From Candidatus Pacearchaeota archaeon UBA92 (GTDB lineage Archaea > Nanobdellota > Nanobdellia > Pacearchaeales > GW2011-AR1): a stretch of DNA of 64,000 nucleotides. The stretch spans positions 34,089 through 98,088 of the forward strand of contig DANJ01000014.1 in NCBI GenBank assembly GCA_002497285.1, given 5' to 3'. Under the pieces are notes generated by a model that was not told the DNA's origin, ran no database searches, and was given only the letters and a program-made list of their open reading frames with translations. Shown here one piece after another: positions 6,682 to 53,000 of the stretch. The stretch's first letter is position 1. The number at the start of each line of letters is the position of its first letter. The translations under genes were made by a program, and so were the position numbers.

Positions 6682-8550
6682 ATGCAAAAGAGGGGTTTAT
6701 CCGAGGTTATAACCACTGTTCTGATAATACTTATTGTTCTTATCAGCATATCCATAATCTGGCTCTTTATCAGGCCAGCAATAGATAGCGTTGTTGGAAA
6801 CAATGACGACAATCCTGGAGAAATTTCAAAACTGAGAAGTTGTCTTGATTTAGAGTTAAATGTTAAAAATTGCAATTTCTTAGGAAATGACTCATACCAA
6901 ATTAGAATCGAAAGAGGAAATGATGAATTAGAAATAAAAGAAATTGTCTTTAAATTTAAGACAAATAATAATGAATTTATATTGAGAAATAATACTCTAA
7001 TTCCAATGCAGTTTGGCTCAGCTATTTATACCTTCAATTTATCAAAAGAAACACAAGAGTCGATTAACTCTGTAGACATATCAGGAATATTATCAAACAA
7101 TAATCCTTGTAGCTTCTCAGGTTTGTCTTTTTCCTGCTCTCAGCAAACTATAGAAAATAATGGAGAAAATAATTTCGAACTTCTGACAACTTATGCATTA
7201 TCCTGGGAAGGAACACCTGGACTAAATTCTAATGTAATTCCAATGTATCAACTAAGAATACAGAACACCCCTGCTCAGGCACTGGCTTTTACATCACAAC
7301 AACCCTCCAGATACAGAACAATAATAGACAGAAGTAGATATCAAGGGATAAATACAAATGAATCAGACAAATGTCAAGATCCAGTAAGTGGCAATTTCTA
7401 CGATTGTATATGGTGGGACAACGGAATAAATGCAACAAAACAAAAATATGAAACTTTCCTCAGCCAATATTCTCAGCAGGGCGGAGAATTAGATTATTGG
7501 ATTTTAGATACAGAAACTTGGCTTTCAAACTGGGCAATTGGCTCAAATAAAAATGACCTATCACAACAGGCAAGATGGAGGGCAATTCAAAATGATCCTA
7601 GAAATGTTACATTATTTCAAGAATTAAATTCTCGTGGATTTAACGGTCAAGATTTGCTAGGAACCGTATTTGACTGGCAAAATGGAGGAGATAATTATCT
7701 AATCTGGAACTCTTTAATGAGAAATAAAGTTGCAACCTATTACAATGATTCTGTGTATAAAGAGGTCAAAAAATATTATCCTAATGTGAAAATGTCCAAT
7801 TATGGTTTAAATCATTGGAGTCAGGAATATGAGGTTCCAGAACTAAACGGGCATAAACAATACAAGTATGGCTCAGGAAGTCATGTTGGAACATATCAGA
7901 CCCAAGACGGCTTATATGGAAATTTAGGGCAAGTAACCTGGACAAACAGATTAATACAGGGCTACACATATGAAGGAACTCCATTCAACGCATTCAGATA
8001 TGAACTAAACAGAATGCGTTCTATGAAACTATCAAGCACCATAGAAATACAACCCTGGATTATCTATAAGGGGTGGAATAAGAGTTTAATGTTCGGAACA
8101 GATTATTATGAAGAATTAATGTTGCACCTAACCTTAATAAATCCAGAAACGTTTCTCTACTGGAATTATAGAGGGCAAGGAGAAAGCCCTCCTTCAAATG
8201 ATGGAAATGACACGCTATTCAGTAATATCCTATCTGAGGCAGACTCTCTAGTTGGATATAAAGATAAACAAATAATAACTTACAACTACGAATCTTACTC
8301 TGATGAGGAATGGTGGAAATCAGATTATGTTTTATCTGGAATGGAAGCCAAAGGGCAGAAAGTATGGAGATTCACTCCTAATTCAACGAACTATGAAATC
8401 AATACAAATAACATAAGAACAACATTCACAACTCAAAGGTATAATATAACAATTCCTCAAGGAGAAATAAGACCAAATAGTGTGTCCACAATAGGAATTT
8501 GGGTAACCCAACCCCTTGGAGCTGGAGAAATAACGATACAGTCCATTTAA
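6682..8550 (+). CDS. exported protein with archaeal class III (prepilin-type) signal peptide, conserved pilin-like N-domain and a C-terminal domain of unknown function
   Basis: N-terminus MQKRGLSEVITTVLIILIVLISISIIWLF has the KRG|LSxVIxTVLLI prepilin-peptidase substrate pattern. The N-domain carries the C..LDL.V..C motif also seen in the 58924 and 61970 proteins. The C-terminal 430 aa are paralogous to the 5298 gene. Confidence 0.7.
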   Translation: MQKRGLSEVITTVLIILIVLISISIIWLFIRPAIDSVVGNNDDNPGEISKLRSCLDLELNVKNCNFLGNDSYQIRIERGNDELEIKEIVFKFKTNNNEFILRNNTLIPMQFGSAIYTFNLSKETQESINSVDISGILSNNNPCSFSGLSFSCSQQTIENNGENNFELLTTYALSWEGTPGLNSNVIPMYQLRIQNTPAQALAFTSQQPSRYRTIIDRSRYQGINTNESDKCQDPVSGNFYDCIWWDNGINATKQKYETFLSQYSQQGGELDYWILDTETWLSNWAIGSNKNDLSQQARWRAIQNDPRNVTLFQELNSRGFNGQDLLGTVFDWQNGGDNYLIWNSLMRNKVATYYNDSVYKEVKKYYPNVKMSNYGLNHWSQEYEVPELNGHKQYKYGSGSHVGTYQTQDGLYGNLGQVTWTNRLIQGYTYEGTPFNAFRYELNRMRSMKLSSTIEIQPWIIYKGWNKSLMFGTDYYEELMLHLTLINPETFLYWNYRGQGESPPSNDGNDTLFSNILSEADSLVGYKDKQIITYNYESYSDEEWWKSDYVLSGMEAKGQKVWRFTPNSTNYEINTNNIRTTFTTQRYNITIPQGEIRPNSVSTIGIWVTQPLGAGEITIQSI

Positions 8551-11929: not shown

Positions 11930-11967
11930 TTTTTAGAGTTATCTTTTAGGGAGGGGATACGGATTAG

Positions 11968-11990
11968 ATATCTTTTTAAAAAGCATATCT
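11968..11990 (+). promoter_or_regulatory. putative archaeal TATA/BRE-like element upstream of the defense operon
   Basis: ctttttaaaaagcat lies 20-30 nt upstream of the ATG at 12002 (leaderless-type spacing). No SD before 12002, whereas the internal genes carry GGAGG. Confidence 0.2.
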
Positions 11991-12001
11991 CTAGGATAAA
12001 T

Positions 12002-13519
12002 ATGGGAACTGGCAACTCAGGAGAACGTCAAAAAATTCTAACTAAATCGAAGTATCTCAATGGGTTGCAGTGTTTAAAGTATCTATGGATTGCAGTTAAT
12101 GATCCTAAAAGAATACCTGCACCAGATGAGCAAGACGAGTTTAGATTTGATGAGGGGCATATTGTTGGGGAATATTCAAAAAAGCTTTTTCCTGATGGCA
12201 TTGATTTGCCTAGCTCACCTGCTGATTTTAGTAAGAACTTAGAAGAAACCCAGAAGTCGCTGGCTATTAGAAAGCCATTATTTGAAGCAGGATTCTTAAA
12301 AGAAAGAGTTTATTCTAGGGCAGATATTCTTGACCCAGTTAAAGGCTCTAAAGACATGTGGGATATTATAGAAGTTAAGAGTTCAACAGAAGTCAAAGAT
12401 GTTCATATTCAAGATGTAGCCTTTCAAAAGTTTTGTTACGAAAAAGCAGGATTAAAAATAAATAAATGTTTTCTTATGCATATTAATAAAGAATATGCTA
12501 AGAAGGGAAATATTAAGGTAGACCAGTTATTTGTTAAAGAAGATATAAGCGAGAAAATTGAAGAAGAGATATCTAACATTCCTGATCGATTAGGTCAAAT
12601 GTTTAAAGTAATGGATTGTAGTGAAGAACCTAAAAGTAAGATAGGGGAGTTTTGTAAAGACCCTTATGACTGTCCAATAAAAAGTGAATGTTGGGGTTTT
12701 CTTCCAGAGAATAGCGTGTTTAATCTTTATAGGGGTGGAAAGAGATCACTTGATTTATTTGAAAAAGGGATTTTGGCAATAAGAGACATTCCAGAAGATT
12801 ACGAGTTGGGAGATAAACAAAAAATCCAGCATTTTTGTGCTAAAACCGATAAACCTCATATAAACAAGGAAGCAATAAAATCTTTCATAAAGAGATTAAA
12901 ATATCCCTTATATTTCCTAGATTTTGAAACCTATCAAACGGTAATCCCCTTGTATGATGGATTGAAACCCTATCAGCAGATACCCTTTCAGTTTTCTTTA
13001 CATATAGTTGATAAAAAAGGAAATAAAAAGCATTACTCATTTGTTGCTGAAGGAAATACAGATCCACGACCTGAGTTTTTTAAACAACTAAAAAAGAAGT
13101 TAGCAAAAAAAGGGAGTATAATTGTTTACAACCAGAGTTTTGAGCAAGGAAGACTAAAAGAATTAGCAGAGCTATTCCCAAAAGAAAAGAAAACTGTAGA
13201 AGAATACATAAAAAGAATGGCTGACTTGTTAGTTCCATTTAGAAATTTCGATTATTATGATTGTAAACAACAAGGGAGTGCAAGTATAAAACATGTTCTT
13301 CCAGCATTAACAAAAGTTACATATAACGGAATGGATATCGCAAACGGCGGTCAAGCATCATTAAGGTATTTGTTTATTACTCACGGATCCAATGATGGAA
13401 AGAAAGCAACAAAAGAAGAGATAAAAAAAGTAAGAGAAGATTTAGAAAAATATTGTTGTCTTGATACTGAAGCTATGATAATGGTTATGAATAAATTAAA
13501 AGAAGTTACAAAAAAATGA
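12002..13519 (+). CDS. DUF2779-type protein: N-terminal PD-(D/E)xK (Cas4/RecB-like) nuclease fused to a DEDD/DnaQ-like 3'-5' exonuclease domain
   Basis: DILD...DIIEVKSS (D..ExK nuclease core). Cys cluster CSEE..C..PYDCPIKSEC. Then YFLDFET (Exo I), IIVYNQSFEQ (Exo II), CCLDTEAM (Exo III). Stop overlaps the start of the next gene (ATGA at 13516). Confidence 0.65.
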   Translation: MGTGNSGERQKILTKSKYLNGLQCLKYLWIAVNDPKRIPAPDEQDEFRFDEGHIVGEYSKKLFPDGIDLPSSPADFSKNLEETQKSLAIRKPLFEAGFLKERVYSRADILDPVKGSKDMWDIIEVKSSTEVKDVHIQDVAFQKFCYEKAGLKINKCFLMHINKEYAKKGNIKVDQLFVKEDISEKIEEEISNIPDRLGQMFKVMDCSEEPKSKIGEFCKDPYDCPIKSECWGFLPENSVFNLYRGGKRSLDLFEKGILAIRDIPEDYELGDKQKIQHFCAKTDKPHINKEAIKSFIKRLKYPLYFLDFETYQTVIPLYDGLKPYQQIPFQFSLHIVDKKGNKKHYSFVAEGNTDPRPEFFKQLKKKLAKKGSIIVYNQSFEQGRLKELAELFPKEKKTVEEYIKRMADLLVPFRNFDYYDCKQQGSASIKHVLPALTKVTYNGMDIANGGQASLRYLFITHGSNDGKKATKEEIKKVREDLEKYCCLDTEAMIMVMNKLKEVTKK

Positions 13520-16431
13520 AATCTCAAAAGCATTCAAAACTAATTCTGAAAGAAAAAAATACCCATTCAAATCTAACGGATTACCATGCAAAATATTATG
13601 CAAATGAATTAACAAAAAGAAATCCTTCAGATAGTATAGAAAAATTAACTACTTCGCTTGCTGATGCCCAAGTTGATTTAAATCCTCATCAAATTGATGC
13701 TGCACTTTTTGCATTCAAATCGCCTCTTTCTAAAGGAGTTATATTAGCGGATGAGGTTGGTTTAGGAAAAACAATCGAAGCAGGAATAGTATTATCTCAA
13801 AAATGGGCAGAGAGCAAAAGAAAAATATTAATTATAGTCCCTTCAAATTTAAGAAAGCAATGGAATCAAGAATTATTAGAGAAGTTTTTCTTAGAATCTC
13901 TAATTTTAGAAACAAAATCTTTTAATGAGATAAATGAGAAAATTAAAATCGGAAATCCATTTGAGCAGAACAAGATAGTTATTTGCTCTTATCATTTTGC
14001 AAGAATTAAAGAGGAATTTATCAAATCGATTAATTGGGATTTGATTATTATTGATGAAGCCCATAGATTAAGGAATGTTTATAAAAAAGGAAATAAGATT
14101 GCCAAGTCAATCAAAGAGTCAACAAAACATGCTCCAAAAATCCTACTTACTGCCACACCTTTACAAAATTCTTTATTAGAACTATATGGATTAGTGGGAT
14201 TTATTGATGATCATATCTTTGGAGATTTAGAAAGTTTTAAAGAACAATTTGTATGGGGGACTGAAGGGAATGGAGTTAATTTTGATGATTTGAAAAAAAG
14301 ATTGAGCCCAATCTGTCAGAGGACATTGAGAAAACAAGTTTTAGAATACATAAAATATACCAATAGACTCGCACTTACTCAAGATTTTATTCCAAATAAA
14401 GAGGAGCAAGAACTTTATAAAAAAGTATCAGATTACTTACAAAAAGAAGACCTTTTTGCATTACCTTCTGGTCAAAGACATTTAATGACTCTGATAATGA
14501 GAAAATTACTGGCATCTTCGACCTTTGCAATTGCGGGAACATTAAGATCTCTTACAAAAAGATTAAAAAAAGTTGTTGAAGCTGGTTCCTTTGAAGAAGT
14601 GGGTAGTTTGTTTAGGGGAGAATATGAGGGGCTAGACGAATTAAGTGAAGAATGGAATGATGAGGACGAACCAGAGAAAAAACAATTAACTCTTTCTGAA
14701 AAAGAACAACTTAAAAGAGAAATAAAAGAGCTGGAAGATTTTAGTAATCTTGCTGAATCCATAAAATCAAATGCAAAAGGAGAAGTTATGCAGACGGCAC
14801 TTGCAGAAGGTTTTTCAAAATTAAAAGAACTTAAAGCTCCAGAAAAAGCATTGATATTTACTGAATTTAGAAGAACCCAAGAATATCTTTATGAAATACT
14901 TTCAAAAACGGAGTATAAAGATAAAATAGTTCTATTTAATGGAACAAACAATGATGAGCTCTCGCAAAGGATATATCGAGAATGGTTAGATAAAAACCGA
15001 GGCACAGATAAATTTACAGGCTCTAAATCTGCTGATCTAAGATCTGCACTAGTTGAATATTTTAGAGATGAAGCTAAAATAATGATCGCTACCGAAGCTG
15101 CAGCAGAAGGCATCAATCTACAGTTCTGTTCATTAGTTGTTAATTACGATCTGCCTTGGAATCCTCAAAGAATAGAACAAAGAATAGGAAGATGTCATAG
15201 ATATGGGCAGAATCATGATGTCGTCGTTATCAACTTTTTGAATAAAAAAAATGAAGCAGACCAGAGAATTTTCCAATTACTTTCTGAGAAGTTTAAATTA
15301 TTTGATGGAGTTTTTGGTGCAAGCGATGAAGTTTTAGGAGCAATTGAATCGGGAGTAGATTTTGAAAAAAGAATAAGTCAGATTTATCAAGAATGTAGAG
15401 GTGCAGAAGAAATAAATAAATCATTTGATAATTTGCAGAAAGAATTAGAGTCACAGATTGAGGAAGGAATGAAAGTTACTCGTAAAAAGCTTTTAGAAAA
15501 TTTTGATGAGGCTGTTCACGAAAGGTTAAAAATAAGTTTAGACCAAAGCAAACAATATCTCAATAGATTTGAACAGTGGTTATGGAGTCTTACTAAATAT
15601 GGTCTTAATGACTCTGCAACATTCAATGACTCTGATTTTTCATTTGATTTGAAAAAATCTCCCTTTAGTGAAATAAACATTTCAACTGGGAGATATAAGC
15701 TAGGTAGAAAAGTTGAAGATGCCCACATTTATCGTATAGGACATCCGATCGCCCAGAGATTATTAGAGAGATTTAAATCTAAAAATCTTCAAGATAGGGA
15801 ATTAGTTTTTGACTTTTCAAACTATGGAAAGAAGATTAGTGTTTTGAATAACCTGCAGAAGAAGAAAGGAGAATTAATATTATGGAAATTAATTGTAGAC
15901 TCATTTGAAAGCGAAGACTATCTTATATTTACCGCTTTAACAGATAAAAAGGAAATTTTGGAAGAAGAGCAATGTAAGAGATTATTTAGTTTGCCTGCAA
16001 ATATGGGTGATGTTTCCAAGAGCTTAGAAATGGAATCAAATTTAAGATCTGAATTTGAAAAGAAAAAGGTTAAGCTCATATCTGAAATTGCAGGAAAAAA
16101 CAGTGTCTTCTTCGATGAGGAAATGGAGAAGTTAGATAAATGGGCGGAGGACAGGAAAAGAACATTAAAAAATAGCTTAAAAGAGCTTGATGAAAAGATA
16201 CAAATCCTAAAAAAAGATATTAGAGTAACCACTAATCTTCAAGATAAACTTAAAAAGCAGAAAGAAATTAGGAGTTTAGATAAAAAGAGGGATGAATCTT
16301 GGAAAGAATATGACCAAGAAGCCCAAAGGATAAACGTTAAAAAGGACGGATTGATTGATAATATTGAAGCGAGAATGGAGCAAAAGATAAAGGTCGAAAA
16401 GCTCTTCTCGATCAAATGGAGTGTTAAATAA
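13516..16431 (+). CDS. SNF2-family (SF2) helicase/translocase with a long C-terminal coiled-coil extension
   Basis: Motif I LADEVGLGKTIEAG, motif II IIIDEAHRLRN, motif III LLTATPLQNSLLELY, motif VI QRIGRCHRYGQ. About 350 aa Lys/Glu-rich coiled coil after the helicase core. Confidence 0.85.
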   Translation: MKSQKHSKLILKEKNTHSNLTDYHAKYYANELTKRNPSDSIEKLTTSLADAQVDLNPHQIDAALFAFKSPLSKGVILADEVGLGKTIEAGIVLSQKWAESKRKILIIVPSNLRKQWNQELLEKFFLESLILETKSFNEINEKIKIGNPFEQNKIVICSYHFARIKEEFIKSINWDLIIIDEAHRLRNVYKKGNKIAKSIKESTKHAPKILLTATPLQNSLLELYGLVGFIDDHIFGDLESFKEQFVWGTEGNGVNFDDLKKRLSPICQRTLRKQVLEYIKYTNRLALTQDFIPNKEEQELYKKVSDYLQKEDLFALPSGQRHLMTLIMRKLLASSTFAIAGTLRSLTKRLKKVVEAGSFEEVGSLFRGEYEGLDELSEEWNDEDEPEKKQLTLSEKEQLKREIKELEDFSNLAESIKSNAKGEVMQTALAEGFSKLKELKAPEKALIFTEFRRTQEYLYEILSKTEYKDKIVLFNGTNNDELSQRIYREWLDKNRGTDKFTGSKSADLRSALVEYFRDEAKIMIATEAAAEGINLQFCSLVVNYDLPWNPQRIEQRIGRCHRYGQNHDVVVINFLNKKNEADQRIFQLLSEKFKLFDGVFGASDEVLGAIESGVDFEKRISQIYQECRGAEEINKSFDNLQKELESQIEEGMKVTRKKLLENFDEAVHERLKISLDQSKQYLNRFEQWLWSLTKYGLNDSATFNDSDFSFDLKKSPFSEINISTGRYKLGRKVEDAHIYRIGHPIAQRLLERFKSKNLQDRELVFDFSNYGKKISVLNNLQKKKGELILWKLIVDSFESEDYLIFTALTDKKEILEEEQCKRLFSLPANMGDVSKSLEMESNLRSEFEKKKVKLISEIAGKNSVFFDEEMEKLDKWAEDRKRTLKNSLKELDEKIQILKKDIRVTTNLQDKLKKQKEIRSLDKKRDESWKEYDQEAQRINVKKDGLIDNIEARMEQKIKVEKLFSIKWSVK

Positions 16432-16433
16432 AA

Positions 16434-18377
16434 ATGGCAAAGAAGGAAACTAAAATTGAAAGAGTTGATTTGAAATCTAGGGATATTGTTGCTAATCAGA
16501 AAGAAAAGCTTAGACAATTGTTCCCAGAAATATTCTCTGAAGATAAAGTTAATTTTGAAAAACTAAAAAAGACATTAGGTGAAAATGTTGATGAATCTCA
16601 GGAAAGATATGAAATGACTTGGGCAGGAAAGACTAACTGTTTTAAAATTATACAAGAATCTTCATTAGGAACATTAAAACCTATTGAAAAGGAGTCGATT
16701 AATTGGGGCGAAACACAGAATTTGTTTATTGAAGGAGATAATTTAGAAGTTCTTAAACTTCTTCAAAAATCCTATAATGAAAAGATAAAAATGATTTACA
16801 TTGATCCTCCTTATAATACGGGTCATGATTTTGTGTATAAAGATAAATTCGGACAACAATTAGATGATTATCTAAAACTAACTGGACAAGTAGATGAAGA
16901 GGGTAAAGCCTTATCTACAAATACTGATGCAGATGGAAGGTATCATAGTAATTGGATGAATATGATGTATCCGAGATTATTTCTTGCAAGAAATCTTTTA
17001 AAAGAAGAAGGCGTGATTTTCATTTCTATTGATGATAATGAGGTAGATAATTTAAAGAAGGTTTGTAACGAAATATTTGGAGAGGAAAATCTTGTTGCTC
17101 AATTAGTTTGGAAGAAGAAAGCGGGAGGAGGAAACGATACTAAATATTTTGCTATTGATCATGAGTATATTTTATGTTATGCAAAGAATATAATCTCTAT
17201 GGGAAGATTATGGATAGGATTAACTGAAGAACAAAGAAGTAAATATGTTCTAAAAGATGAATTTTTTGATGAAAGAGGACCATACCAATTAAAAAATCTT
17301 TATCAAGGATCTATTGCAGAAGATCGTCCCAACTTAAAGTATCCAATAACTTGCCCTGATGGTTCTAAACTGCATAAGAAAAAGGATGGGGGACTTTATA
17401 GATGGAGATGGGAAGAGTCTCGGTTTTTGGAAGGTGTAAAAGATAGTAAAATAGAATTTAAAAAAATAAATGGAGAATGGCAGGTTTTTACTAAGCAATA
17501 TCTTTATGATGGAGAAGATGGAGATGAAAGAATGACTAAACCTAGATCAATTTTATTGAAGGAAGGAATGACTCGAGATGGTAAAGAAGAATTAAAATCT
17601 TTGTTTGATAAACCTCCTTTTGATTTTCCAAAACCTACAAAATTGATAAAGCATCTCATGAGTATAATGACTAATTCAGATTCAGATGAAATAATCTTAG
17701 ACTTTTTTGCTGGTTCTGGAACAACTGCTCATGCAGTTTTAGAGTTAAATAAGGAGGAGAACGGGAGGAGAAAGTTTATTCTTGTTCAATTACCCGAGCC
17801 AACCAACGAGGACTCAGAAGCCTTCAAGACAGGATATAAACATATAGCCCATATCTCTCAAGAAAGAATAAAGAGAGTAATTAAGAGAATTAAAGAAGAA
17901 CAAAAAGAAGCTGGAAAGCAAAAGAAAATTGGAGAAGAAAATAAAACAAATAACCTCGATTTAGGATTTAAGGTATTCCAATTAGATAAATCCAACTTTA
18001 AGATTTGGGATGCACAAACAAGAGATATTCAGACTGCCTTGAATGAACATATAAATCCGATAAGAAAAGAAAGTTCGCAAGAAGATGTCCTTTATGAACT
18101 GATACTAAAATCAGGATTATCTTTAACAACAGATATTAAAGAGATAAAAGTTGGCAATAAAAAATTGTTTTCTATTGAGGATGGAATGCTCCTAATTTGT
18201 TTAGAGAAAGAGCTAACTTCTGAATTAATAAAGAAAATTGCAGAAATGAAACCTGCGAGATTTTACTGTTTAGATGATGGATTTAAAGGAAATGATCAAC
18301 TAAAAGCCAACGCTGTTGAAATCTTTAAGAATGTTGAAACTGTTGATGGAGAAAAAATTGTCTTCAGAACAGTTTAA
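16434..18377 (+). CDS. mod: type III restriction-modification Mod subunit (N6-adenine DNA methyltransferase, beta class)
   Basis: IYIDPPYNTGHDF (motif IV DPPY) precedes FFAGSGTTAHAV (motif I, AdoMet binding). Size 647 aa. Immediately followed by Res. Confidence 0.85.
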   Translation: MAKKETKIERVDLKSRDIVANQKEKLRQLFPEIFSEDKVNFEKLKKTLGENVDESQERYEMTWAGKTNCFKIIQESSLGTLKPIEKESINWGETQNLFIEGDNLEVLKLLQKSYNEKIKMIYIDPPYNTGHDFVYKDKFGQQLDDYLKLTGQVDEEGKALSTNTDADGRYHSNWMNMMYPRLFLARNLLKEEGVIFISIDDNEVDNLKKVCNEIFGEENLVAQLVWKKKAGGGNDTKYFAIDHEYILCYAKNIISMGRLWIGLTEEQRSKYVLKDEFFDERGPYQLKNLYQGSIAEDRPNLKYPITCPDGSKLHKKKDGGLYRWRWEESRFLEGVKDSKIEFKKINGEWQVFTKQYLYDGEDGDERMTKPRSILLKEGMTRDGKEELKSLFDKPPFDFPKPTKLIKHLMSIMTNSDSDEIILDFFAGSGTTAHAVLELNKEENGRRKFILVQLPEPTNEDSEAFKTGYKHIAHISQERIKRVIKRIKEEQKEAGKQKKIGEENKTNNLDLGFKVFQLDKSNFKIWDAQTRDIQTALNEHINPIRKESSQEDVLYELILKSGLSLTTDIKEIKVGNKKLFSIEDGMLLICLEKELTSELIKKIAEMKPARFYCLDDGFKGNDQLKANAVEIFKNVETVDGEKIVFRTV

Positions 18378-18388
18378 GGAGAAAAAAT

Positions 18389-21313
18389 ATGGCTCTTAAA
18401 CTAAAATTCGACAGCGATTTACGACACCAAAATGATGCAATTAGTTCTATAGTTGATTTATTTGATGGTCAGCCATTAAATCAAGGAGATTTTGAAGTCT
18501 ATATGGCAAAGAAGAAGGGTGAGCTCCATAGTCATTTGGGATTGGGAAATAAAATTCTATTAGATGAAAAAGATATTTTAGAAAATTTGAAAAAGATACA
18601 AGAAAAAAATGAACTTCCACTTTCGGATAATTTAGATGGGCTTAATTTTTCTATTGAAATGGAAACAGGAACTGGAAAAACTTATGTTTATTTAAGAACG
18701 ATATTTGAATTAAACAAAAAATATGGTTTCAAGAAGTTTATTGTTGTAGTTCCAAGTGTTGCGATTAGGGAGGGAGTTAAGAAAAATATTGAAATTACAG
18801 AAGAACACTTCAAAAAGTTATATAATAATGTTCCATTCAAATGTCAGGTCTATGATTCTAAAAAAATAAATCAAGTTGGGGAGTTTGCAAGAAGTAATAA
18901 CATTCAGGTTCTAATTATCAATATTGATGCATTTAGGAAGACATTAGAAGATAAAGATGAACTCTCAAAGGCAAATGTTATTCATAGAGAACAAGATAAA
19001 CTCGGTGGTAGAAAACCAATTGAGTTCATTCAAGCAACAAAACCGATCGTAATTATAGATGAACCTCAAAGCGTAGACAATACAGATCTAGCTAAAAAAG
19101 CAATTTCTTTATTAAACCCTTCCTGCATATTAAGGTATTCTGCTACGCATAGAGAACAATATAATTTAGTTTACAAATTAGATCCTATAAAAGCGTATGA
19201 TTTGAAATTAGTTAAAAAAATAGAGGTGGCTTCTTTAACCGAAGACTTATCTGCAAATGAACCATACATCAAGTTAGAAAAAATGGATAATTCAAAGGGT
19301 CTCAGAACAAAAATATCTATTCTACAAAAAGGCTCTTCGGGAACAAATAAGAAAAGCTTGTTTGCAAAACAAGGCGAAGATTTGTATGATCTCTCTGGTG
19401 AGTTGGAAATTTACAGAGGATATATTATATCTGACATAGATGCTACCCCTAAAAATGAATTATTGACTTTCAGCAATGGCAAGTTTTTAACATTGGGTCA
19501 AGAAATGGGTGGAATAAAAGAAGAATTGATAAAACAACAAATTAAAGAGACTATTAAAGAACATCTTAAAAAAGAAGCTAAATTTAAGAAACTCGGTATA
19601 AAGGTTCTTTCTCTATTCTTTATTGATAGAGTTAATAATTATAGATATTATGATGAAAAGAATAAGGCACAAAAAGGAAAATATGCTCAATGGTTTGAAG
19701 AGTCATTTAAAGAGTTATTAAAAGAATCTTACTTTAAGTTTATTATAGATCAAGTTTATCCAGGATTTTCAGAAGAGTCCATTGAAAGGCTACATAACGG
19801 ATATTTTGCACAAGATAAAAGTGGAAATTGGAAAGATACAAATGGACAAACTCAAGCTGATGACGATATCTATGGGCTTATTATGAGAAACAAAGAGCAA
19901 TTATTGTCTATGGACGAACCATTGAGATTTATATTTAGCCACTCTGCTTTAAGAGAGGGTTGGGATAATCCTAATGTTTTTCAAATATGCACATTAAATG
20001 AGACTAAATCTACTATGAAAAAAAGACAAGAAATTGGACGAGGGTTAAGACTCCCCGTAAATCAAAAAGGAGAAAGAATTTATGATGATGAAATCAACAG
20101 ATTAACTGTCTTTGCTAATGAAAGCTATGAAGATTTTGTTAAGAAGTTACAAGAAGATTTTGAAGAAGACGGTATGAAATTTGGTATTGTTGACGAGATT
20201 ATATTTAGAAAAGTAAGGGAACTTATTGCTGGAGAGAAATTTATTCCTTCGGAAAAAGCCAAAGAGATTTTTATCGAATTAAAAGATAAAGGATACATAA
20301 ACAAAGATGGAAAGATTGAAGAGAAATTTGCCCCTGAAAAAGAAGGATTCAAATTGGAGCTTAAAGAGTCATTAGTCAAATATTCTCCGCAGATAACTGA
20401 TTTATTGAAGAAACAATTATTAACTAGTAGAGTTAAGAGAAAAAGAGATAGACAACCTGTAAAACTAAAGAAAGAAGTTATAGCTAGTCCAGAATTTAAA
20501 GCTCTTTGGCAAAAAATAAATAAGAAAACATTCTATTCAGTAGAATTTTCTACTAAAAAGCTTATAGACAATTGTTCAATCCTAATAAGACAAATTGATA
20601 AAATAAGACCATTGAAAATTGATTTTAAGAAAGCTGAAGTTGAATTAGAAAAGGAAGGACTAGACACAACCCTTTTAAGAACTCAAGAAATTGAAGTTAT
20701 GAAAGAGAACTCTCTTCCAGATATCTTATCTTATCTACAGAGAGAAACACATTTAACTAGAGACACGATAGCAGAAATTCTAATAAAATCAAATAGGATT
20801 GAAGAGTTTAAAATAAATCCTCAAAGATTCATGGATGCTATAATTGAAGTTGTCAAAAAAGAATTATTGAGCTTATTGCTATCGGGAATAAAATATGAAA
20901 GAATAGGCAATGAAGTTTATGAGATTCAAATATTTCAAGAAAAAGAAATTGAAGAATATTTAGATAAAATGATAGAAGTCAATAATAGCGTTTATGATTA
21001 TGTTGTTTATGATTCCGAAGTAGAGAAGAAGTTTGCTAAAGAACTTGACAAAAGAGAAGATGTAGAATTATTCATGAAACTTCCTCCAAAGTTCATTGTA
21101 AATACACCATTAGGATCTTATAATCCAGATTGGGCTGTTGTAAAAAAGGATGAAAAGGGAGCTAAAAAATTATATCTTGTAAGAGAAACAAAAGGTTCGC
21201 TTTCTGAAGAAGACCTTAGAGGTAGAGAAGCATATAAGATAGAATGTGGAAGAAGACATTTTAAGGCAATTGACGTTGACTTTGATGTTGTGACTAGTGC
21301 CAGCGAGGTTTAA
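18389..21313 (+). CDS. res: type III restriction enzyme Res subunit (SF2 helicase plus C-terminal PD-(D/E)xK endonuclease)
   Basis: Walker A EMETGTGKTYVY, DEAD-like IIDEPQ, helicase motif VI region QEIGRGLRL, C-terminal nuclease motif YNPDWAVV...LYLVRETKG. GGAG SD-like sequence 8 nt upstream. Confidence 0.85.
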   Translation: MALKLKFDSDLRHQNDAISSIVDLFDGQPLNQGDFEVYMAKKKGELHSHLGLGNKILLDEKDILENLKKIQEKNELPLSDNLDGLNFSIEMETGTGKTYVYLRTIFELNKKYGFKKFIVVVPSVAIREGVKKNIEITEEHFKKLYNNVPFKCQVYDSKKINQVGEFARSNNIQVLIINIDAFRKTLEDKDELSKANVIHREQDKLGGRKPIEFIQATKPIVIIDEPQSVDNTDLAKKAISLLNPSCILRYSATHREQYNLVYKLDPIKAYDLKLVKKIEVASLTEDLSANEPYIKLEKMDNSKGLRTKISILQKGSSGTNKKSLFAKQGEDLYDLSGELEIYRGYIISDIDATPKNELLTFSNGKFLTLGQEMGGIKEELIKQQIKETIKEHLKKEAKFKKLGIKVLSLFFIDRVNNYRYYDEKNKAQKGKYAQWFEESFKELLKESYFKFIIDQVYPGFSEESIERLHNGYFAQDKSGNWKDTNGQTQADDDIYGLIMRNKEQLLSMDEPLRFIFSHSALREGWDNPNVFQICTLNETKSTMKKRQEIGRGLRLPVNQKGERIYDDEINRLTVFANESYEDFVKKLQEDFEEDGMKFGIVDEIIFRKVRELIAGEKFIPSEKAKEIFIELKDKGYINKDGKIEEKFAPEKEGFKLELKESLVKYSPQITDLLKKQLLTSRVKRKRDRQPVKLKKEVIASPEFKALWQKINKKTFYSVEFSTKKLIDNCSILIRQIDKIRPLKIDFKKAEVELEKEGLDTTLLRTQEIEVMKENSLPDILSYLQRETHLTRDTIAEILIKSNRIEEFKINPQRFMDAIIEVVKKELLSLLLSGIKYERIGNEVYEIQIFQEKEIEEYLDKMIEVNNSVYDYVVYDSEVEKKFAKELDKREDVELFMKLPPKFIVNTPLGSYNPDWAVVKKDEKGAKKLYLVRETKGSLSEEDLRGREAYKIECGRRHFKAIDVDFDVVTSASEV

Positions 21314-22009
21314 ATGACACTAGCCCTAACTTTTCCAATAAGGGATGCATGGGTAGTTATTGCAGATAAAAAGATGATTAGTAAGGAGGATAATATTAAA
21401 GATAGCGATCTAATGTGCATAAAGTTTTTTACAGATAATAGACAAAAAATAGAAAAGATAGCTCATGGATTAATCTTTGTTGGTGCTGGAAATAAGGACA
21501 TATTAGATAAGACTATTGAGAGAATAAATCTTTCAAAAGACTTTGACGAGTTTTTGAAGTATTTAAAAGAAAAAATAGGTGAAGTATACTCTCATTTTGG
21601 TGATACTATAAATGAAGAGGAATTTTTGATTATTGAACAGAACAAACAAAGAGCTTTTAAGTTCAAGATTAAAGAAATAAAAAGAAGCGAGGGTAAAAAA
21701 GGCTGTTATCCTTTGATAGCCCAGAATCTTGAGAATAATTTCATTGGTTGTTATGAAAATTGCATAAATCTCGGGAATGTTAAATTAGAGATAAACCAAT
21801 TAAGAACTAATATTTCTACAAGTGCGGGCAAGAAATTTTATCAAGAGTGTAATAGAATTCTTTCGCTTCTCGCAATAGATAATCTATATTCAGTGGGACA
21901 TCCAGCAATACATGGATCAGACATCTGGTTAGTTTCAAATAATAAGATTAAAAAAGTTTACTCTTCGCCAGCAAATACATATCTATGGGAGGTTAAAGAA
22001 GATGATTAA
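21314..22009 (+). CDS. hypothetical protein of the defense operon; N-terminus resembles an Ntn-hydrolase (HslV/proteasome beta-like) fold
   Basis: MTLALTFPIRDAWVVIADKKMISKEDNIKDSD..IKFF..IAHGLIFVGAGNKDILD. Thr directly after Met1, Asp about 17 residues after it, Lys about 33-36, G-x-G-D further on. This copies the T1/D17/K33 spacing of HslV ([20 protein letters not shown]...KVRRL...IAGFAGGTAD). GAGG SD upstream. Start abuts the res stop. Confidence 0.3.
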   Translation: MTLALTFPIRDAWVVIADKKMISKEDNIKDSDLMCIKFFTDNRQKIEKIAHGLIFVGAGNKDILDKTIERINLSKDFDEFLKYLKEKIGEVYSHFGDTINEEEFLIIEQNKQRAFKFKIKEIKRSEGKKGCYPLIAQNLENNFIGCYENCINLGNVKLEINQLRTNISTSAGKKFYQECNRILSLLAIDNLYSVGHPAIHGSDIWLVSNNKIKKVYSSPANTYLWEVKEDD

Positions 22010-24185
22010 GGAATTTGAGGATATTCGATATAAATTTGAAGAACAAAAAGTAAGGTATACTTCTATTTCCAATAAATTTTCATTTGAAGATAAGAAAAAA
22101 ATAATAGAAACTATCTTGGAAGAGGATATCTGGGCATATTTTCAATTAGCAGTTGAAATATTATTTGAGTTTTGTTCTGATACTAAGGAATACATTAATC
22201 TGTTAGAAAGAACCTATAATAAAATAAAAAATGATATGGCATCTGCACCTTTCTTTGAGATGTTGATTAGAATCGGTAAGGAGAAGCCATCTATAGGTCT
22301 TGCAATTTATAAAGAAATAAATCAAAATAGCAATAGCGATGAGCTCAAAACAATAAGCGGTTTAATACTTGGGGGATATTCAATAAAAGAGAATAATCTT
22401 TTAAACAAGTTAATAGGAGAAAGAAAAATAGAATACCCTCTTACAAATCTGACTCTTAAGGCAATTCTGGTAAAATATGAAAATGAAAACGCTATTCCTG
22501 AAGAGGTAAAATCATTTATTGAATATGTCTCTAACTCTGAAGAGGAAAAACATTTGAGAGAACTTATGAATCTTTGTATTTTTTTATACAAATTAGATAA
22601 TAACTATTTTTATGATATAATTAAAAAGATAATGGAAAAGAAAAATAGTAGAGTAAATGAGATGATTTTTATTAGATGCAAAAGGCTAAACTTCTCAAGT
22701 AAACAGTTTATAGAATTAGCTGAGCTTACAAAAGATTGTGATGAACACGCTTTAAATGAACTGATGCATTCTTTTATTGATTATCCAGAGGAAGTTGAGA
22801 ATATATCAGAATTATTTATTTATTGGGTAAACAAGAACTTGGAGTTTAAAATTATAAATTTTGATTGGACATTAAAAGAATTGGCTAAAAAGAATAAGAA
22901 ATTCATAGAATACTTCATAGATAATTATAGCAAAATCCAGACTGAAAAGTTATCTTATTTTCATTTATTCCCAAGAATGTTTGAGAGATTAGCTTCTGAG
23001 GATATCTCTTTCGCCATAAAAATATTAATTATCAAGAAAGTATGGGAAAAGGACTTAAGACTATTCTTTGAATTGGTATCTAAAATTATAGGCGATATTT
23101 ATAAGTTGAGTGATAAAAACAAGGCATTTGATTTGTTCTTACCTCTTGCCAATGTAATTGAAAGCATCTCGGAGGGTTCAGATTTTGTAAATTATGACAA
23201 GGATAATTTTAATAAGATTATTCAAACAAAAAACTTTGATGAGTTAATCAATTATGTCAACTATTTGTTGGATGCTTTAAGGTTTCGTAAGAATAAATAT
23301 AACTTTGAAGAAATAGATAAGTCATTAGAAGAATTTAAAGAACTAAACTATGTTGTAAAAACTACTCTGGATAAAATAAAAAAAGAAAAGAGATACTCTC
23401 CATTATTCTGGCTAGGCGAACAAGAAAGAGATAAGGAGTTAAAGAAAGCATACCTAGAAGAATTAAACCAATATTTGAATTTAACCTCGGATATAGTGAA
23501 TGAAGAATGTTCTGAGAACAATAGGTCTTTGATTAATAATCTAAGTGATGAAAGTGGCTTTTTTGATGTCTTTAGTGAGGTGCTATTCATAAATAAATTT
23601 GTTGTTTTAAAGAGCAAGTATAGTTTAGTTATTGAACCAAAAATACCTAATAAGAGAGGTTATTCAGATTTATTAGTTCAGAATAAGCAAAGAAAGTTTT
23701 TCTTTGAGGTTAAAAATTCAAAAACAGATCGAAATTTAAGTTTAGATAACGGGGCAGTCTTAATAAAAAATAGGGTGGACAAGATAATTAAAGAAAAATC
23801 CAAGCAGTTCTTTGATGAAAAAACATTTAAGGAGATGGAAGATGGAAAAAGGACAGATCTCTACTTTATAGTAATTGATGCAGATAATTCAACTATCGAT
23901 GAATACATGATTGCCAATAGCTTTTTTGGAAGTTTAGCTTATCAGTTTTATAGAAATAATAAAACTGGGGAGACTACAGAACCCCAGTTAGTAAGGAATG
24001 ATGATGCAATAGCTAAGGATAAGAAAATTGTTAGCGGATTAATATATTTCAAAAAACAGTTAATCAATAAAGATGGAAAAATAAAATTTATTTTGGTAGG
24101 GGATATTATTGTAAATCCTTATGCAGTTAATCAACCAACAAAAGAAGAGGTTGAAGAGTTAAAGAAAATATTATTTAGTGCGTAA
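22002..24185 (+). CDS. large hypothetical protein (727 aa): N-terminal all-alpha repeat region plus C-terminal restriction-endonuclease-like (PD-(D/E)xK) motif
   Basis: C-terminal segment LVIEPKIPNKRGYSDLLVQNKQRKFFFEVKNSK (D-x11-E-x-K) then DLYFIVIDAD. GGAGG SD upstream. Start overlaps the previous stop (22002 vs 22009). Confidence 0.45.
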   Translation: MIKEFEDIRYKFEEQKVRYTSISNKFSFEDKKKIIETILEEDIWAYFQLAVEILFEFCSDTKEYINLLERTYNKIKNDMASAPFFEMLIRIGKEKPSIGLAIYKEINQNSNSDELKTISGLILGGYSIKENNLLNKLIGERKIEYPLTNLTLKAILVKYENENAIPEEVKSFIEYVSNSEEEKHLRELMNLCIFLYKLDNNYFYDIIKKIMEKKNSRVNEMIFIRCKRLNFSSKQFIELAELTKDCDEHALNELMHSFIDYPEEVENISELFIYWVNKNLEFKIINFDWTLKELAKKNKKFIEYFIDNYSKIQTEKLSYFHLFPRMFERLASEDISFAIKILIIKKVWEKDLRLFFELVSKIIGDIYKLSDKNKAFDLFLPLANVIESISEGSDFVNYDKDNFNKIIQTKNFDELINYVNYLLDALRFRKNKYNFEEIDKSLEEFKELNYVVKTTLDKIKKEKRYSPLFWLGEQERDKELKKAYLEELNQYLNLTSDIVNEECSENNRSLINNLSDESGFFDVFSEVLFINKFVVLKSKYSLVIEPKIPNKRGYSDLLVQNKQRKFFFEVKNSKTDRNLSLDNGAVLIKNRVDKIIKEKSKQFFDEKTFKEMEDGKRTDLYFIVIDADNSTIDEYMIANSFFGSLAYQFYRNNKTGETTEPQLVRNDDAIAKDKKIVSGLIYFKKQLINKDGKIKFILVGDIIVNPYAVNQPTKEEVEELKKILFSA

Positions 24186-24240: not shown

Positions 24241-24705
24241 TTATTTTACATGGGGGGATTTTGGTCTGCCGAGCTTTTTGCCTTCCTGCCTTGCCCTTTC
24301 TAAGCCAGCCATAGTCCTTTCCCTGATAATATCCCTCTCAAATTGGGCAAATGACGAGAGAATGTTTATCATTAGCTTATTTGTTGGGTTATCATCTAAG
24401 ACTATATTCTCCTTTAGAGTTTTGAATTGAACATTATTTTGTTTAAGAAGTTCTAAGTCATTAATGAGTTCCTGCATGCTCCTTGCCCATCTGTCAAGTT
24501 TCCAAACTAAAATTAAATCCCATTTCTTTCTTAATGCATCTTGAAAAATATCGTTTTTTACAGGGCGAGTCTTTCTTGTTGACTCCTGTTCTTCAAATAT
24601 TTTATAATCATAGCCCATAGCTTTTGCATACTTTTCCAACTCTATCTTTTGATTCTCAGGATTCTGATCTATCTTTGAAGTTCTACAATATATCGCTACT
24701 TTCAT
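24241..24705 (-). mobile_element. serine recombinase (resolvase/invertase catalytic domain), C-terminal HTH missing and probably truncated
   Basis: MKVAIYCRTSKIDQNPENQ carries the catalytic Ser in the YxRxS context. Also ...DRWARS, LGRPK. 154 aa ending right after the GRPK linker, where the HTH would normally follow. Confidence 0.7.
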
Positions 24706-50082: not shown

Positions 50083-53000
50083 TTATTCTCCCAAGCTTGC
50101 AGTAAAGGTAATAGTTGAATTCCTAGCTCCTGCAAATTCCTCCGTAGGTACAGTAACATTGATATCAATTTCAGCCGTATCTGTAGCATTTGTATAATTT
50201 AGCTCCACTATAGCCAACACAGAAGAACCTGTGTCCGGAATTTGAGTATAGATAAATTTAGATAACAACCAGTTAAAAGAACTATTTTCAAGAGTGTTGT
50301 TGTCTGCTTTAAAAGTATAATAATTGCTTGGATTCGCCTGTGTAATCCAAAGACCAGTTGCACCTAAAGTAATGTTCACAAAAGAATTTCCATCATTCTG
50401 TAAAAGGAAAGGTCTCGGAGAATTATCAGAAGTATCATTGAATCCAAACTGTGCTATGGATCCAAAATCAACGGTTGAATTTAGAAGGCTTATCTGAATA
50501 AGTGCTGAAACATTTAAGGCAAAAGATTCAGTCCATGCAGAGAATTCTTCAGCATCATAAACCCTTATGCTCCAGTTATACCTATAAGAATTATCATACA
50601 AATAAACCAAATCCCCTCCGCCTATTGGTTCACTTCCTAAATCATAGCTGTTAGTATCAATAGTTTCTACATACCTTGTATCATCTCCTCTGTTTGTGCA
50701 TCCTCCTCCGGAAGTGTGAAAACAGGTGATGTTAAGGTCATAATAAAGCACGTCAGAATCATCATCACTGCTTGCACCCCATGCGAAAACAGGAGTCCTG
50801 TCTGTGGTCGACGCCCCATTAGCCGGCGTTGAAAGCGCAGGCACTATTGGAGGCGTGTTCAATATTTTAATTGTCTGCGTGGAATTAGCCCAGTTACTCT
50901 GTGAAATCTGATTATCGAACAATCTCAATGAACATGTCCAATTCTGTCCCTTTGTTGTGTTACCAGAATATAAAATTGCATCAAAGGCACTTCCATTTGC
51001 ATAGCTGTTATTAAATTCTGCAGTCAAATGTATCTTGCTTTCATTATACCATAGAACTGTAACATTCATAGCTTCATTGTCCTGGTCATATATTGTATCT
51101 ATACAATGTAGGTTCTGAGCTGTCTTGTTAGTTCCAAGAGTTGAATTTATTTCAGGAGTTGGAGTGTCTGGAGCTAAATTTCCTTGGGCAGAATTCACAT
51201 CAAAATCTCTAATCTGACTTTCGTTATTATTACCGCCATTATCGGTGGCATTCAATCTCCAATTATACTTGCCAACCCCAAGCGTGTATGTGTCAGCTAT
51301 TTCACTTGCAGTCAGAGTCTTATTCCAAATTGCAATTTCATCTATAGTTCCATTAAATCCTCCAGGAGCTCCAGAACCAACAGCAGTTTTAGTAGTAGAA
51401 CCAATTAGTAAGGGATTTGTATTACTAAATATTGAATACGTGCCTTCATTCGTACCAGCAACAGCTCCGTTAATATAAAATTTAATTGTCGTTGCATTGA
51501 CGGTAACTGCTACATGATTCCATTTATTTCTTGAAATAATATTTGAACTGGAATTGACAGGAGAGTCTGCTCCTGTATCAAACATCGTTCCATTTGATGT
51601 ATAATTAAACATGAACCAGAATCCATCATTTCCCCCTCCCGTCTCATCATCCTTAGAGACTATAAATCCATCATATCCATCTAAGTTAGGATATATCCAA
51701 ACCATAACAGTTAAATTTGAGACATTTAACAAAGCACCGCTTGGAGAAGACAAATAACTGGTATAACTAACTCCTGGAAGAATAATTCCTCCGCCAAGCT
51801 TGCCGCCGCTTTCATTAACTAATGCACCTCCAGAAAGATTACCGCTGCCTCCATGATCACTATAATCATAATACCTTGTATCATTCTCCCCATACTCGCT
51901 TCTATTATCCAAATGCAGTAGCAGAACACTAAATTCATCTGGAATAATAACTGGAGATGTCCAATTATAAATCACAAAAGAATTATTAGGGATAGTATTT
52001 TGATAGATAAGCCCGTGCTTGTAAAGATTTGCCTGTAAACTTGAATTTATTCCGAATATTCTTGTCTTCAAAACATCATTATAAGTATCATTTACAGTCG
52101 CATTTAAAATAATATTGAGAGAACCATAAGTAAATTGACTTGCATTATTAGGAGAATTTAATATAAAGTTTGGCGAGGGATTATTAAGGTTTGTAAATAC
52201 AATATTCAAATTTCTTGTAACATTGAGAGGTATTCCACTATCACTATATCCTATCTTGCTTGTATTCACACTATAATTGCTCTGAAGAATTACAACTCCT
52301 CCTGCTAAAGTTCCATTAACTATATATTCGGATATTCTATATCCCGCATCTCCAGTTGAATTTGTTAGTTCAGAGTCTGTAGCAGAACCGGTATTATTGA
52401 AAAAAGTCACGTTAACATTTGATACAAAATTACTCAATGTGTCATTAGTTTTAACATTCACAAACCACTGCTTATACAATCTTCCTCCAGGGTTGACGGT
52501 ATGGGTGCTGTAATTTGAGCTGACAAGATAAATACTCTGATTTCCGCTGATAACAATATTAGAAAGAAAGGACCCTGAAAGATTAGAATCAAGTATGCTA
52601 ACATTGTTACAGAATACACAGAAAATATTGTAATTTGACCTTCCTCCAGCCCCATCAGCCCCAAAAAATCGGGAGTTAGTAAGAATAATATTTTCTGATA
52701 AAATTTCTATATCTGCATCAAAAGCCTTGGAAACTGTATTATTATCAAAAACTAAACTAGATGTATTTATAGAAAGTCCTCTTCTCATATTAATTGCTTC
52801 TGTATTTCCAGTATAACTGACATAAGAATTCTTCAGGCTAAGATTAGAGCCCTGCCCAACTTGAAATAAAAATCTGAAATCATTATTTTTAGTTATGTTA
52901 GAATAATTAGCTGACAATGTTCCGCCATCAGAAACATAAAGATTGAACTCTCCGTCAAAATTCGAATTGCTCATTTCCAAAGTGCAGGATTCCAGAATTA

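Follow-up and report, generated by a model that had tools for sequence, protein, structure and literature searches.

Does a gene that heads a restriction-modification (R-M) array belong to that array? The question arises in a 64,000-nucleotide stretch from Candidatus Pacearchaeota archaeon UBA92 (the window, a term used here for the whole stretch analyzed), where an open reading frame (ORF) for a protein of the DUF2779 family is the first of six co-directional ORFs separated by gaps of at most 11 nucleotides (nt). A SNF2 ATPase and the Mod and Res subunits of a Type III R-M system follow it. The ORF, with an ATG start and 505 amino acids (aa), is present exactly as originally predicted (Table 1), and its product matches a hypothetical protein of Candidatus Pacearchaeota archaeon CG1_02_32_132 at 100% identity. 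The original prediction described two nucleases in one polypeptide that would head a defense operon and work together with the SNF2 protein. Our analysis supports the molecular part of that description: the protein is a DUF2779 member in which a Cas4/RecB-like PD-(D/E)xK domain of the iron-sulfur (Fe-S) type is fused to a DEDD-type 3'-5' exonuclease domain. As for its genomic role, we consider it probable, without placing great certainty in it, that this is an autonomous, stand-alone protein for processing free DNA ends, which lies outside the SNF2 and Type III R-M module and has that cassette behind it in this genome only.

A two-nuclease protein of the DUF2779 family

Profile searches assign the C-terminal half of the protein to DUF2779 (Pfam PF11074; aa 304-428, covering the model from position 1 to 126 of 126, with 154.8 bits where the cut-off is 23.3) and to RNase_H_2 (PF13482; aa 305-499). 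The N-terminal half received a weak Cas4 match from PADLOC (aa 109-231, E 1.8e-4). The NCBIfam model NF045869, which represents the UU173 family, a Mollicutes subfamily of DUF2779, aligned with aa 271-504 only and reached 58.2 bits, below its cut-off of 225.

Searches of the PDB by sequence found next to nothing, and folds therefore had to be compared. The single sequence found no match there, and the family profile gave only a weak match of the Exo II region (IVYNQSFE) to a Pol I-like chain (9qhs), within its exonuclease region. An AlphaFold2 model built from 117 homologs reached a predicted local distance difference test (pLDDT) of 94.3 and a predicted template-modeling score (pTM) of 0.87. 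Given this high confidence, the two halves are predicted to be held in a fixed arrangement. In Foldseek searches against the PDB, the N-terminal half matched the Cas4 chain 8d3l_I (E 4.6e-6, probability 1.0, template-modeling score of 0.55 normalized to the target), followed by 7mi4, 4r5q, 4ic1, and human EXO5 (7lw9). The C-terminal half matched the proofreading exonuclease domain of PolB (5mdn), 3'hExo (1w0h/4l8r), RNase T (3ngy), and ExoI (3c94). The structure prediction thus bears out the proposed pairing of the two nuclease types. Foldseek also returned many whole-length alignments of low probability (0.15-0.44) to chains of spliceosomal Prp8. Prp8 likewise joins endonuclease-like and RNase H-like domains, and these alignments probably reflect merely a common order of domain types.

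All motifs quoted in the original prediction are present, namely ADILD (D108), DIIEVKSS (E124 and K126), YFLDFET (D307 and E309), YNQSFEQ (E381), and CCLDTEAM (Y484 and D488). Their conservation was assessed in two sets, one of 117 homologs at 54-87% identity and one of 137 cluster representatives at 36-50% identity. Among the close homologs, the motif residues are invariant or nearly so. Among the representatives, conservation reaches 100% for D108, 99% for E124, and 100% for both K126 and Q142 in the PD-(D/E)xK half; in the exonuclease half it amounts to 99% for D307 and E309, 98% for E381 and Y484, 99% for D488, and 70% for N377. An additional acidic residue outside the canonical DEDD set, D408 (13223-13225), is conserved at 98% across the family. 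Because the motifs are retained in both close and distant relatives, they are not chance occurrences. With both catalytic sets at 98-100% in the representatives and a DUF2779 score far beyond its cut-off, neither an unrelated family nor unconserved catalytic residues were found, and the molecular reading stands. The four candidate ligand cysteines are present in 95% (C24), 91% (C218), 93% (C224), and 86% (C230) of the representatives; by analogy with Cas4-type proteins, they probably form an Fe-S cluster.

Place among known nucleases

The family is large. An exhaustive search retrieved 8,414 cluster representatives at 50% identity (E<=1e-3), and a word-index search scored 6,492 homologs among 8,000 candidates. 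Among the 150 best representatives listed, most measure about 470-530 aa and align over nearly the full length, roughly aa 10-500. The fusion as such is not new, since computational work had described it before. Within the RNase H-like superfamily, Majorek et al. (2014) assigned PF11074 to the clade of 3'-5' exonucleases (clade F.17) and noted its co-occurrence with a PD-(D/E)xK (DUF83) domain (PMC3985635). For the JCVI-syn3.0 homolog MMSYN1_0389, a study in mSphere in 2026 described the fusion of a Cas4-like nuclease with a DEDD(y) nuclease, stated that the catalytic residues are conserved throughout PF11074, and reported the gene as quasi-essential, with a role "beyond bacterial immunity" (PMC13621843). 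In Mycoplasma bovis, a transposon mutant of the homolog was among those picked up by a cell-culture growth screen (PMC7373297). Together, the quasi-essentiality of MMSYN1_0389 and the M. bovis mutant suggest a family role beyond defense.

The window protein is thus an ordinary new member of a known family that is experimentally uncharacterized. It shares with the other members, MMSYN1_0389 included, the Cas4/DUF83-like PD-(D/E)xK N-terminal half, the DEDD(y) RNase H-like C-terminal half, and the conserved D...ExK and D-E-(D/E)-Y-D residues. Unlike the Mycoplasma protein, which has two of the Cas4-type cysteines, it carries all four, and it comes from a DPANN archaeon rather than from the Mollicutes. 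RecB-like proteins of the COG2251/TM0106 type, which carry RNase_H_2, likewise combine a PD-(D/E)xK (DUF83) domain and a clade F exonuclease (Majorek et al., PMC3985635); PF13482 matches the window protein as well. COG2251 proteins often have tandem AAA domains, whereas the window protein has none.

Each half can also be compared with its nearest characterized relatives. With Cas4 (8D3L, 7MI4, 4IC1, 4R5Q) and EXO5/AddB, the N-terminal half shares the fold, the D/ExK triad, and the arrangement of one N-terminal and three C-terminal cysteines. It differs from Cas4 in the spacing of these cysteines (C-x5-C-x5-C), in its fusion to a second nuclease, and in the Y of QxxxY, which is not conserved in DUF2779 relatives (24% of the 137 representatives). 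The C-terminal half resembles DEDD exonucleases (5MDN, 1W0H, 3NGY, 3C94) in its RNase H-like fold, the order of Exo I, II, and III, and a Y-x3-D Exo III of the DEDDy type. Unlike these enzymes, it has Glu (E381) in place of Asp as the Exo II acid, possesses the additional invariant D408, and is not joined to a polymerase or a helicase.

The resemblance to Cas4 raises the possibility that the protein acts as a "solo Cas4" in adaptation by clustered regularly interspaced short palindromic repeats (CRISPR). Prespacers are known to undergo DEDD-type trimming in CRISPR biology. The Cas4 domain would cut the side of the protospacer-adjacent motif, and the DEDD domain would trim the 3' overhangs of the prespacer. 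The best structural matches, Cas4 subunits of Cas4-Cas1-Cas2 complexes, fit such a role. The genomic context does not: the 64-kb window contains no CRISPR array and no cas gene (cas1 and cas2 included; PADLOC was also run on the neighbors), and neither Cas1 nor Cas2 is among the commonest neighbor families of the 85 DUF2779 loci described below. A CRISPR link was rejected on these grounds, and we regard this explanation as extremely unlikely.

The DUF2779 gene and the R-M module keep separate company

The claim that the gene heads a defense operon was examined in two sets of loci, one for each side of the junction. The first set comprised 85 DUF2779 loci at 42-87% identity from DPANN archaea, Dehalococcoidia, Scalindua, Verrucomicrobiota, Methanosarcinales, and others. 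These loci were searched by tblastn with the SNF2, Mod, and Res proteins of the window and with two ORFs downstream and two upstream. SNF2 appeared in one locus, at a distance of 9 kb; two loci had a Mod-like methylase, none had Res, and no match to the four flanking ORFs turned up in any of the 85. Clustering of 614 neighbor ORFs from 80 loci likewise revealed no conserved partner, the largest cluster being an ABC ATPase found in 10 of the 80 at scattered offsets. A same-strand gene lies within 100 nt downstream of the DUF2779 gene in 28 of 72 loci. In a relative with 84% aa identity (the nearest has 87%), the next gene downstream is on the opposite strand.

The second set comprised 80 metagenomic loci with SNF2 homologs (L086-L165), most of which show full-length identity of 51-65%. 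A Mod-like gene of Type III lies downstream in 60 of the loci and a Res-like gene in 44, with many contigs ending before Mod or Res could appear. A DUF2779 gene was found within 10 kb in none of the 80. PADLOC identified MTase_III and REase_III in both close and more distant loci (L086, L093, L122), which belong to two different Type III subfamilies. One to three extra small genes sometimes stand between the module genes, and DrmA, DrmB, and DrmC are absent. The SNF2 homologs are usually preceded by an intergenic gap, and their upstream genes vary. Since SNF2, Mod, and Res are kept together across these loci and DUF2779 occurs in none, they constitute a real conserved module without DUF2779. 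The two surveys therefore speak against the DUF2779 gene as the head of a defense operon, as does the homology at the gene borders described below. No published name for the SNF2 and Type III module was found in the literature searched.

The SNF2 protein invites comparison with Class 1 DISARM, a restriction-modification-associated defense island system that joins the SNF2 protein DrmD and DrmMI with DrmA, DrmB, and DrmC; the comparison concerns only the genes next to DUF2779 in the window. The window's SNF2 protein matches DrmD models strongly, with a PADLOC E value of 1e-222 and 743 bits for NCBIfam DISARM_DrmD_b, the latter under the cut-off of 950. Its partners differ from those of Class 1 DISARM in being a canonical Type III Mod and Res, and DISARM does not include DUF2779. 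When the six proteins of the operon and the genes upstream were scanned with PADLOC, Pfam, and NCBIfam, no DrmA, DrmB (DUF1998), or DrmC was detected. DISARM membership of the operon was rejected, as only DrmD-like, MTase_III, and REase_III proteins were found. At one metagenomic locus (L117:1-3834), the SNF2 and Res segments are 95% identical to those of the window and Mod is only 65% identical, which suggests that the methylase or its specificity domain was swapped within an otherwise near-identical cassette.

The junction with the SNF2 gene

Nucleotide homology to the nearest relatives (84% for L001 and L003, 82% for L004) extends from window position 11952 to about 13530, or to 13461 in the case of L004. 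The DNA common to these loci comprises the gene and a 50-bp block upstream, and the flanks on both sides are unrelated. Within this block, GGATACGGATTAGATATCTTTTTAAAAAGC is found at a single place in the window, where chance would give 0 matches. The block is likely the DUF2779 gene's own archaeal promoter, given its TATA-like element and position.

On the other side of the junction, the overlap between the stop codon of DUF2779 and the start codon of SNF2 was confirmed as an ATGA. The partnership that the original prediction drew from it does not follow. Homologs of the SNF2 protein begin with M-x-LTDYHAKY; the window protein has no start codon at this point and no other canonical start codon upstream of its conserved N-terminus. 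Its reading frame begins instead with an extension of 18 codons (MKSQKHSKLILKEKNTHS), which is absent from ten homologs inspected. Because this extension is specific to the locus, the overlap is a feature of the junction in the window and not a conserved coupling. Moreover, overlaps occur in 12 of the window's 40 same-strand neighbor pairs, and in 8 of these the overlap is exactly 4 nt. Since 4-nt overlaps are common here and the SNF2 extension is found at this locus only, the overlap is weak evidence of a partnership. The stretch 13520-13530 resembles the 3' tail of a relative's DUF2779 gene, a similarity that is only suggestive.

The sharp limits of nucleotide homology raise another explanation, in which the 1.58-kb unit of promoter and gene is a horizontally mobile cassette, or a landmark beside an integration hotspot, and the nuclease serves the maintenance or transfer of an element. 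It would account for the 82-84% identity confined to the gene and 50 bp between unrelated flanks, and for the 45-55% aa identity between homologs of DPANN archaea and those of Dehalococcoidia, Scalindua, Verrucomicrobiota, and others. Tyrosine integrases belong to the most frequent near neighbors (5 of 148), one lies directly upstream in L001-L003, and a resolvase stands at the far end of the array in the window. Yet these lineages usually show little synteny, no recombinase accompanies the gene consistently, and a search for att-like repeats around the DUF2779 gene or the R-M array gave only AT-rich two-copy matches of the kind expected by chance, with no flanking direct or inverted repeats beyond these. 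A 30-nt repeat pair at 13404/24133 (77%) looked well placed and was rejected, as the homology to the relatives continues about 100 nt past its left copy. The protein also has no PHROG match and no match among 50,697 phage records, and it matches in only 32 of 72,556 plasmids, figures on which a phage or plasmid origin was rejected. We consider this explanation very unlikely.

Two plasmid contexts and one further shared segment were recorded. One plasmid carries a cluster of a PD-(D/E)XK protein, DUF2779, and a WYL protein. On Planktothrix agardhii plasmid p2 (L167:2439-8449), a DEAD/DEAH helicase, an ATP-binding protein, DUF2779, and a phospholipase D (PLD) family protein are co-directional and possibly form a multi-gene defense-type cluster containing DUF2779. 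The only other stretch that the window has in common with a relative's contig is 8590-8729, with 75% nucleotide identity to L004:9333-9472. It forms the start of a 126-aa ORF of raised GC content (0.41) with no Pfam match, and it lies 3 kb upstream of DUF2779 in the window and 7.5 kb downstream, inverted, in L004.

Proposed role and its alternatives

We favor a reading in which the DUF2779 protein works alone. By analogy with the homologous families, the PD-(D/E)xK half, of the Cas4/AddB/EXO5-type Fe-S kind, would act on single-stranded DNA or 5' ends, and the DEDDy half would act as a 3'-to-5' exonuclease. Two rigidly joined nucleases of this kind would most likely trim or degrade free DNA ends and single-stranded tails in both polarities, in a metal-dependent manner and with no built-in motor. 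The role of such an enzyme would be general processing or clearance of DNA ends, as in repair or the recycling of linear DNA. The R-M cassette, bounded on its far side by the resolvase gene, would have landed behind the DUF2779 gene, and its genes would be transcribed by read-through from the DUF2779 promoter. Read-through is probable because the SNF2 ORF lacks the start codon of its homologs and begins at an ATG inside the 3' end of DUF2779, and because the gaps do not exceed 11 nt over six ORFs and no T-run terminator follows the DUF2779 stop codon.

Several observations weigh against this reading. The insertion history that we infer has two supports, a residual similarity of about 15 nt and the absence of the canonical SNF2 start codon. 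The literature searched contained no nuclease assay or other biochemistry for any DUF2779 member. The DUF2779 gene is likely co-expressed with the R-M genes at the window locus, where the nuclease could incidentally act on restriction products, with nothing that indicates an evolved partnership. Furthermore, the commonest Pfam families among tight neighbors of DUF2779 (n=54) are GIY-YIG, with three occurrences, and C5 methylase, GmrSD, N6_Mtase, and HEPN, with two each. Within three genes on either side (148 in all, about 28 loci), N6_Mtase and Phage_integrase occur five times each, HsdM_N four times, and Eco57I three times. A control set from these loci, made up of genes at least six positions distant, is mostly housekeeping: HAD hydrolases, tRNA synthetases, and P-type ATPases are its most frequent members, and it includes two HsdR and two integrases. 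These figures hint that DUF2779 is often located within or next to variable R-M or mobile regions and has some link to defense, although they are small. A defense-island enrichment was rejected on this account: R-M methylases and integrases are more numerous near than far, but the counts are too small for significance.

Generalized, the original prediction would hold that DUF2779 is a plug-in accessory of restriction systems that degrades DNA ends, associated here with SNF2 and Type III R-M, where it destroys fragments or prepares single-stranded DNA, and elsewhere with GmrSD or Type I/IIG systems. The ATGA overlap and the co-directional array of six genes agree with it, as do the R-M and defense families among tight neighbors, which are rarer farther off, and the plasmid contexts of a PD-(D/E)XK and WYL pair and of a DEAD helicase, ATPase, DUF2779, and PLD array. 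The closest relatives add to this. In L001 (2910-8295), and also in L002 and L003, a tyrosine integrase is followed by DUF2779 and, after a gap of 3 nt, by a 1014-aa protein with GmrSD_N and SLFN/AlbA_2 domains. A different restriction-type gene therefore occupies the slot held by SNF2 in the window. What speaks against an accessory role is the lack of a fixed partner, with DUF2779 in none of the 80 SNF2/Type III loci and a close same-strand downstream gene in only the 28 of 72 loci noted above. The overlap is explained by the locus-specific SNF2 extension, and the near-versus-far difference amounts to about five against at most two counts, which is not statistically secure. Apart from the weak Cas4 match, PADLOC defense and candidate models are silent, and a homolog is quasi-essential in a phage-free minimal cell (PMC13621843). 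We hold the accessory role to be rather unlikely.

A broader version of this idea makes DUF2779 proteins promiscuous "finishing" nucleases. They would be recruited repeatedly beside unrelated restriction systems (SNF2 with Type III, GmrSD, and Type I/IIG methylase loci) and would destroy cleaved invader DNA in both polarities in lineages that lack machines of the RecBCD/AddAB type. If so, the translational coupling in the window would be one snapshot of such recruitment. We regard this version as distinctly unlikely, and the autonomous end-processing protein remains our preferred reading.

Gene layout of the window

The coordinates of the DUF2779 unit and of the array behind it are collected in Table 1. 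Since gyrase A/B, aIF5B, and a giant LamG surface protein are also encoded in the window, the stretch is chromosomal. The two ORFs after Res have no family match in Pfam, PADLOC, NCBIfam, or PHROGs, and no counterpart was found across the 80 SNF2 loci except for one weak match to the 727-aa ORF, which has the lowest GC content in the array (0.277). The resolvase at the end of the array hints at present or past mobility of the R-M genes as an array.

Table 1. Features of the DUF2779 gene, its product, and the adjoining array, in window coordinates
Feature	Position	Strand	Basis or remark
Conserved upstream block GGATACGGATTAGATATCTTTTTAAAAAGC with palindromic TATA-like element 18-29 nt before the ATG	11955..11984	+	Only flanking DNA common to L001/L003 and L004
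DUF2779 (PF11074) ORF, two-nuclease protein, 505 aa	12002..13519	+	Pfam, homolog identity, AlphaFold2 model
N-terminal Cas4/RecB-like PD-(D/E)xK domain, aa ~12-232	12035..12697	+	PADLOC, Foldseek, residue conservation
PD-(D/E)xK residues: E95, D108, E124-x-K126, Q142			
Putative Fe-S ligands: Cys24 and C218-x5-C224-x5-C230			
Linker region, mostly helical, aa ~233-300; conserved P235, L242, I263, Q276, C279	12698..12901	+	Secondary structure, pLDDT, invariant columns
C-terminal DnaQ-like DEDDy 3'-5' exonuclease domain, aa ~301-504	12902..13513	+	Pfam, Foldseek, conservation
Exonuclease motifs: Exo I D307-x-E309; Exo II N377-x2-F380-E381; Exo III Y484-x3-D488			
ATGA overlap: TGA of the DUF2779 gene (13517-13519) with ATG of the SNF2 ORF (13516-13518)	13516..13519	+	
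SNF2 N-terminal extension, 18 codons, locus-specific (MKSQKHSKLILKEKNTHS)	13516..13569	+	Homolog starts align at residue ~19
SNF2 ATPase, DrmD-like, 971 aa; neighbor, outside the DUF2779 unit	13516..16431	+	Pfam SNF2-rel_dom and Helicase_C
Type III R-M Mod	16434-18377	+	PADLOC MTase_III, E 6e-211
Type III R-M Res	18389-21313	+	PADLOC REase_III, 1022 bits
Two more co-directional ORFs, 231 aa and 727 aa, directly 3' of Res	21314..24185	+	Gaps 0 and -8 nt
Serine recombinase (resolvase) gene closing the array on the right, 55 nt past the last ORF	24241..24705	-	Pfam Resolvase, E 3.9e-36

Three further genes of the window were recorded. At 30082-32988 (+), 16 kb from the DUF2779 gene, lies a gene for a 968-aa protein in which a UvrD-type helicase and a PD-(D/E)XK nuclease are fused, an AddA/PcrA-like helicase-nuclease. 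The giant ORF of 2,906 aa at 50083-58803 (-) contains Laminin_G_3 domains and internal tandem repeats of 21/39 nt at 56955-57160, and it probably encodes a surface protein. A 622-aa protein at 6682-8550 (+) matches an archaellin/type IV pilin N-terminal signal over its first 30 residues (TIGR02537, 20.5 bits), and its remainder has no family match.

Implications

In compact DPANN genomes, a stop/start overlap of 4 nt is common and is therefore no proof of functional partnership. At this locus, comparison with relatives separates a conserved SNF2 and Type III R-M module from the unrelated gene in front of it. DUF2779 comprises more than 8,000 clusters at 50% identity across bacteria and archaea and includes a distant member that is quasi-essential in JCVI-syn3.0. 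The window protein is a compact and confidently modeled representative of this family; its two catalytic sets and four cysteines are all intact, and it would be well suited to biochemistry.

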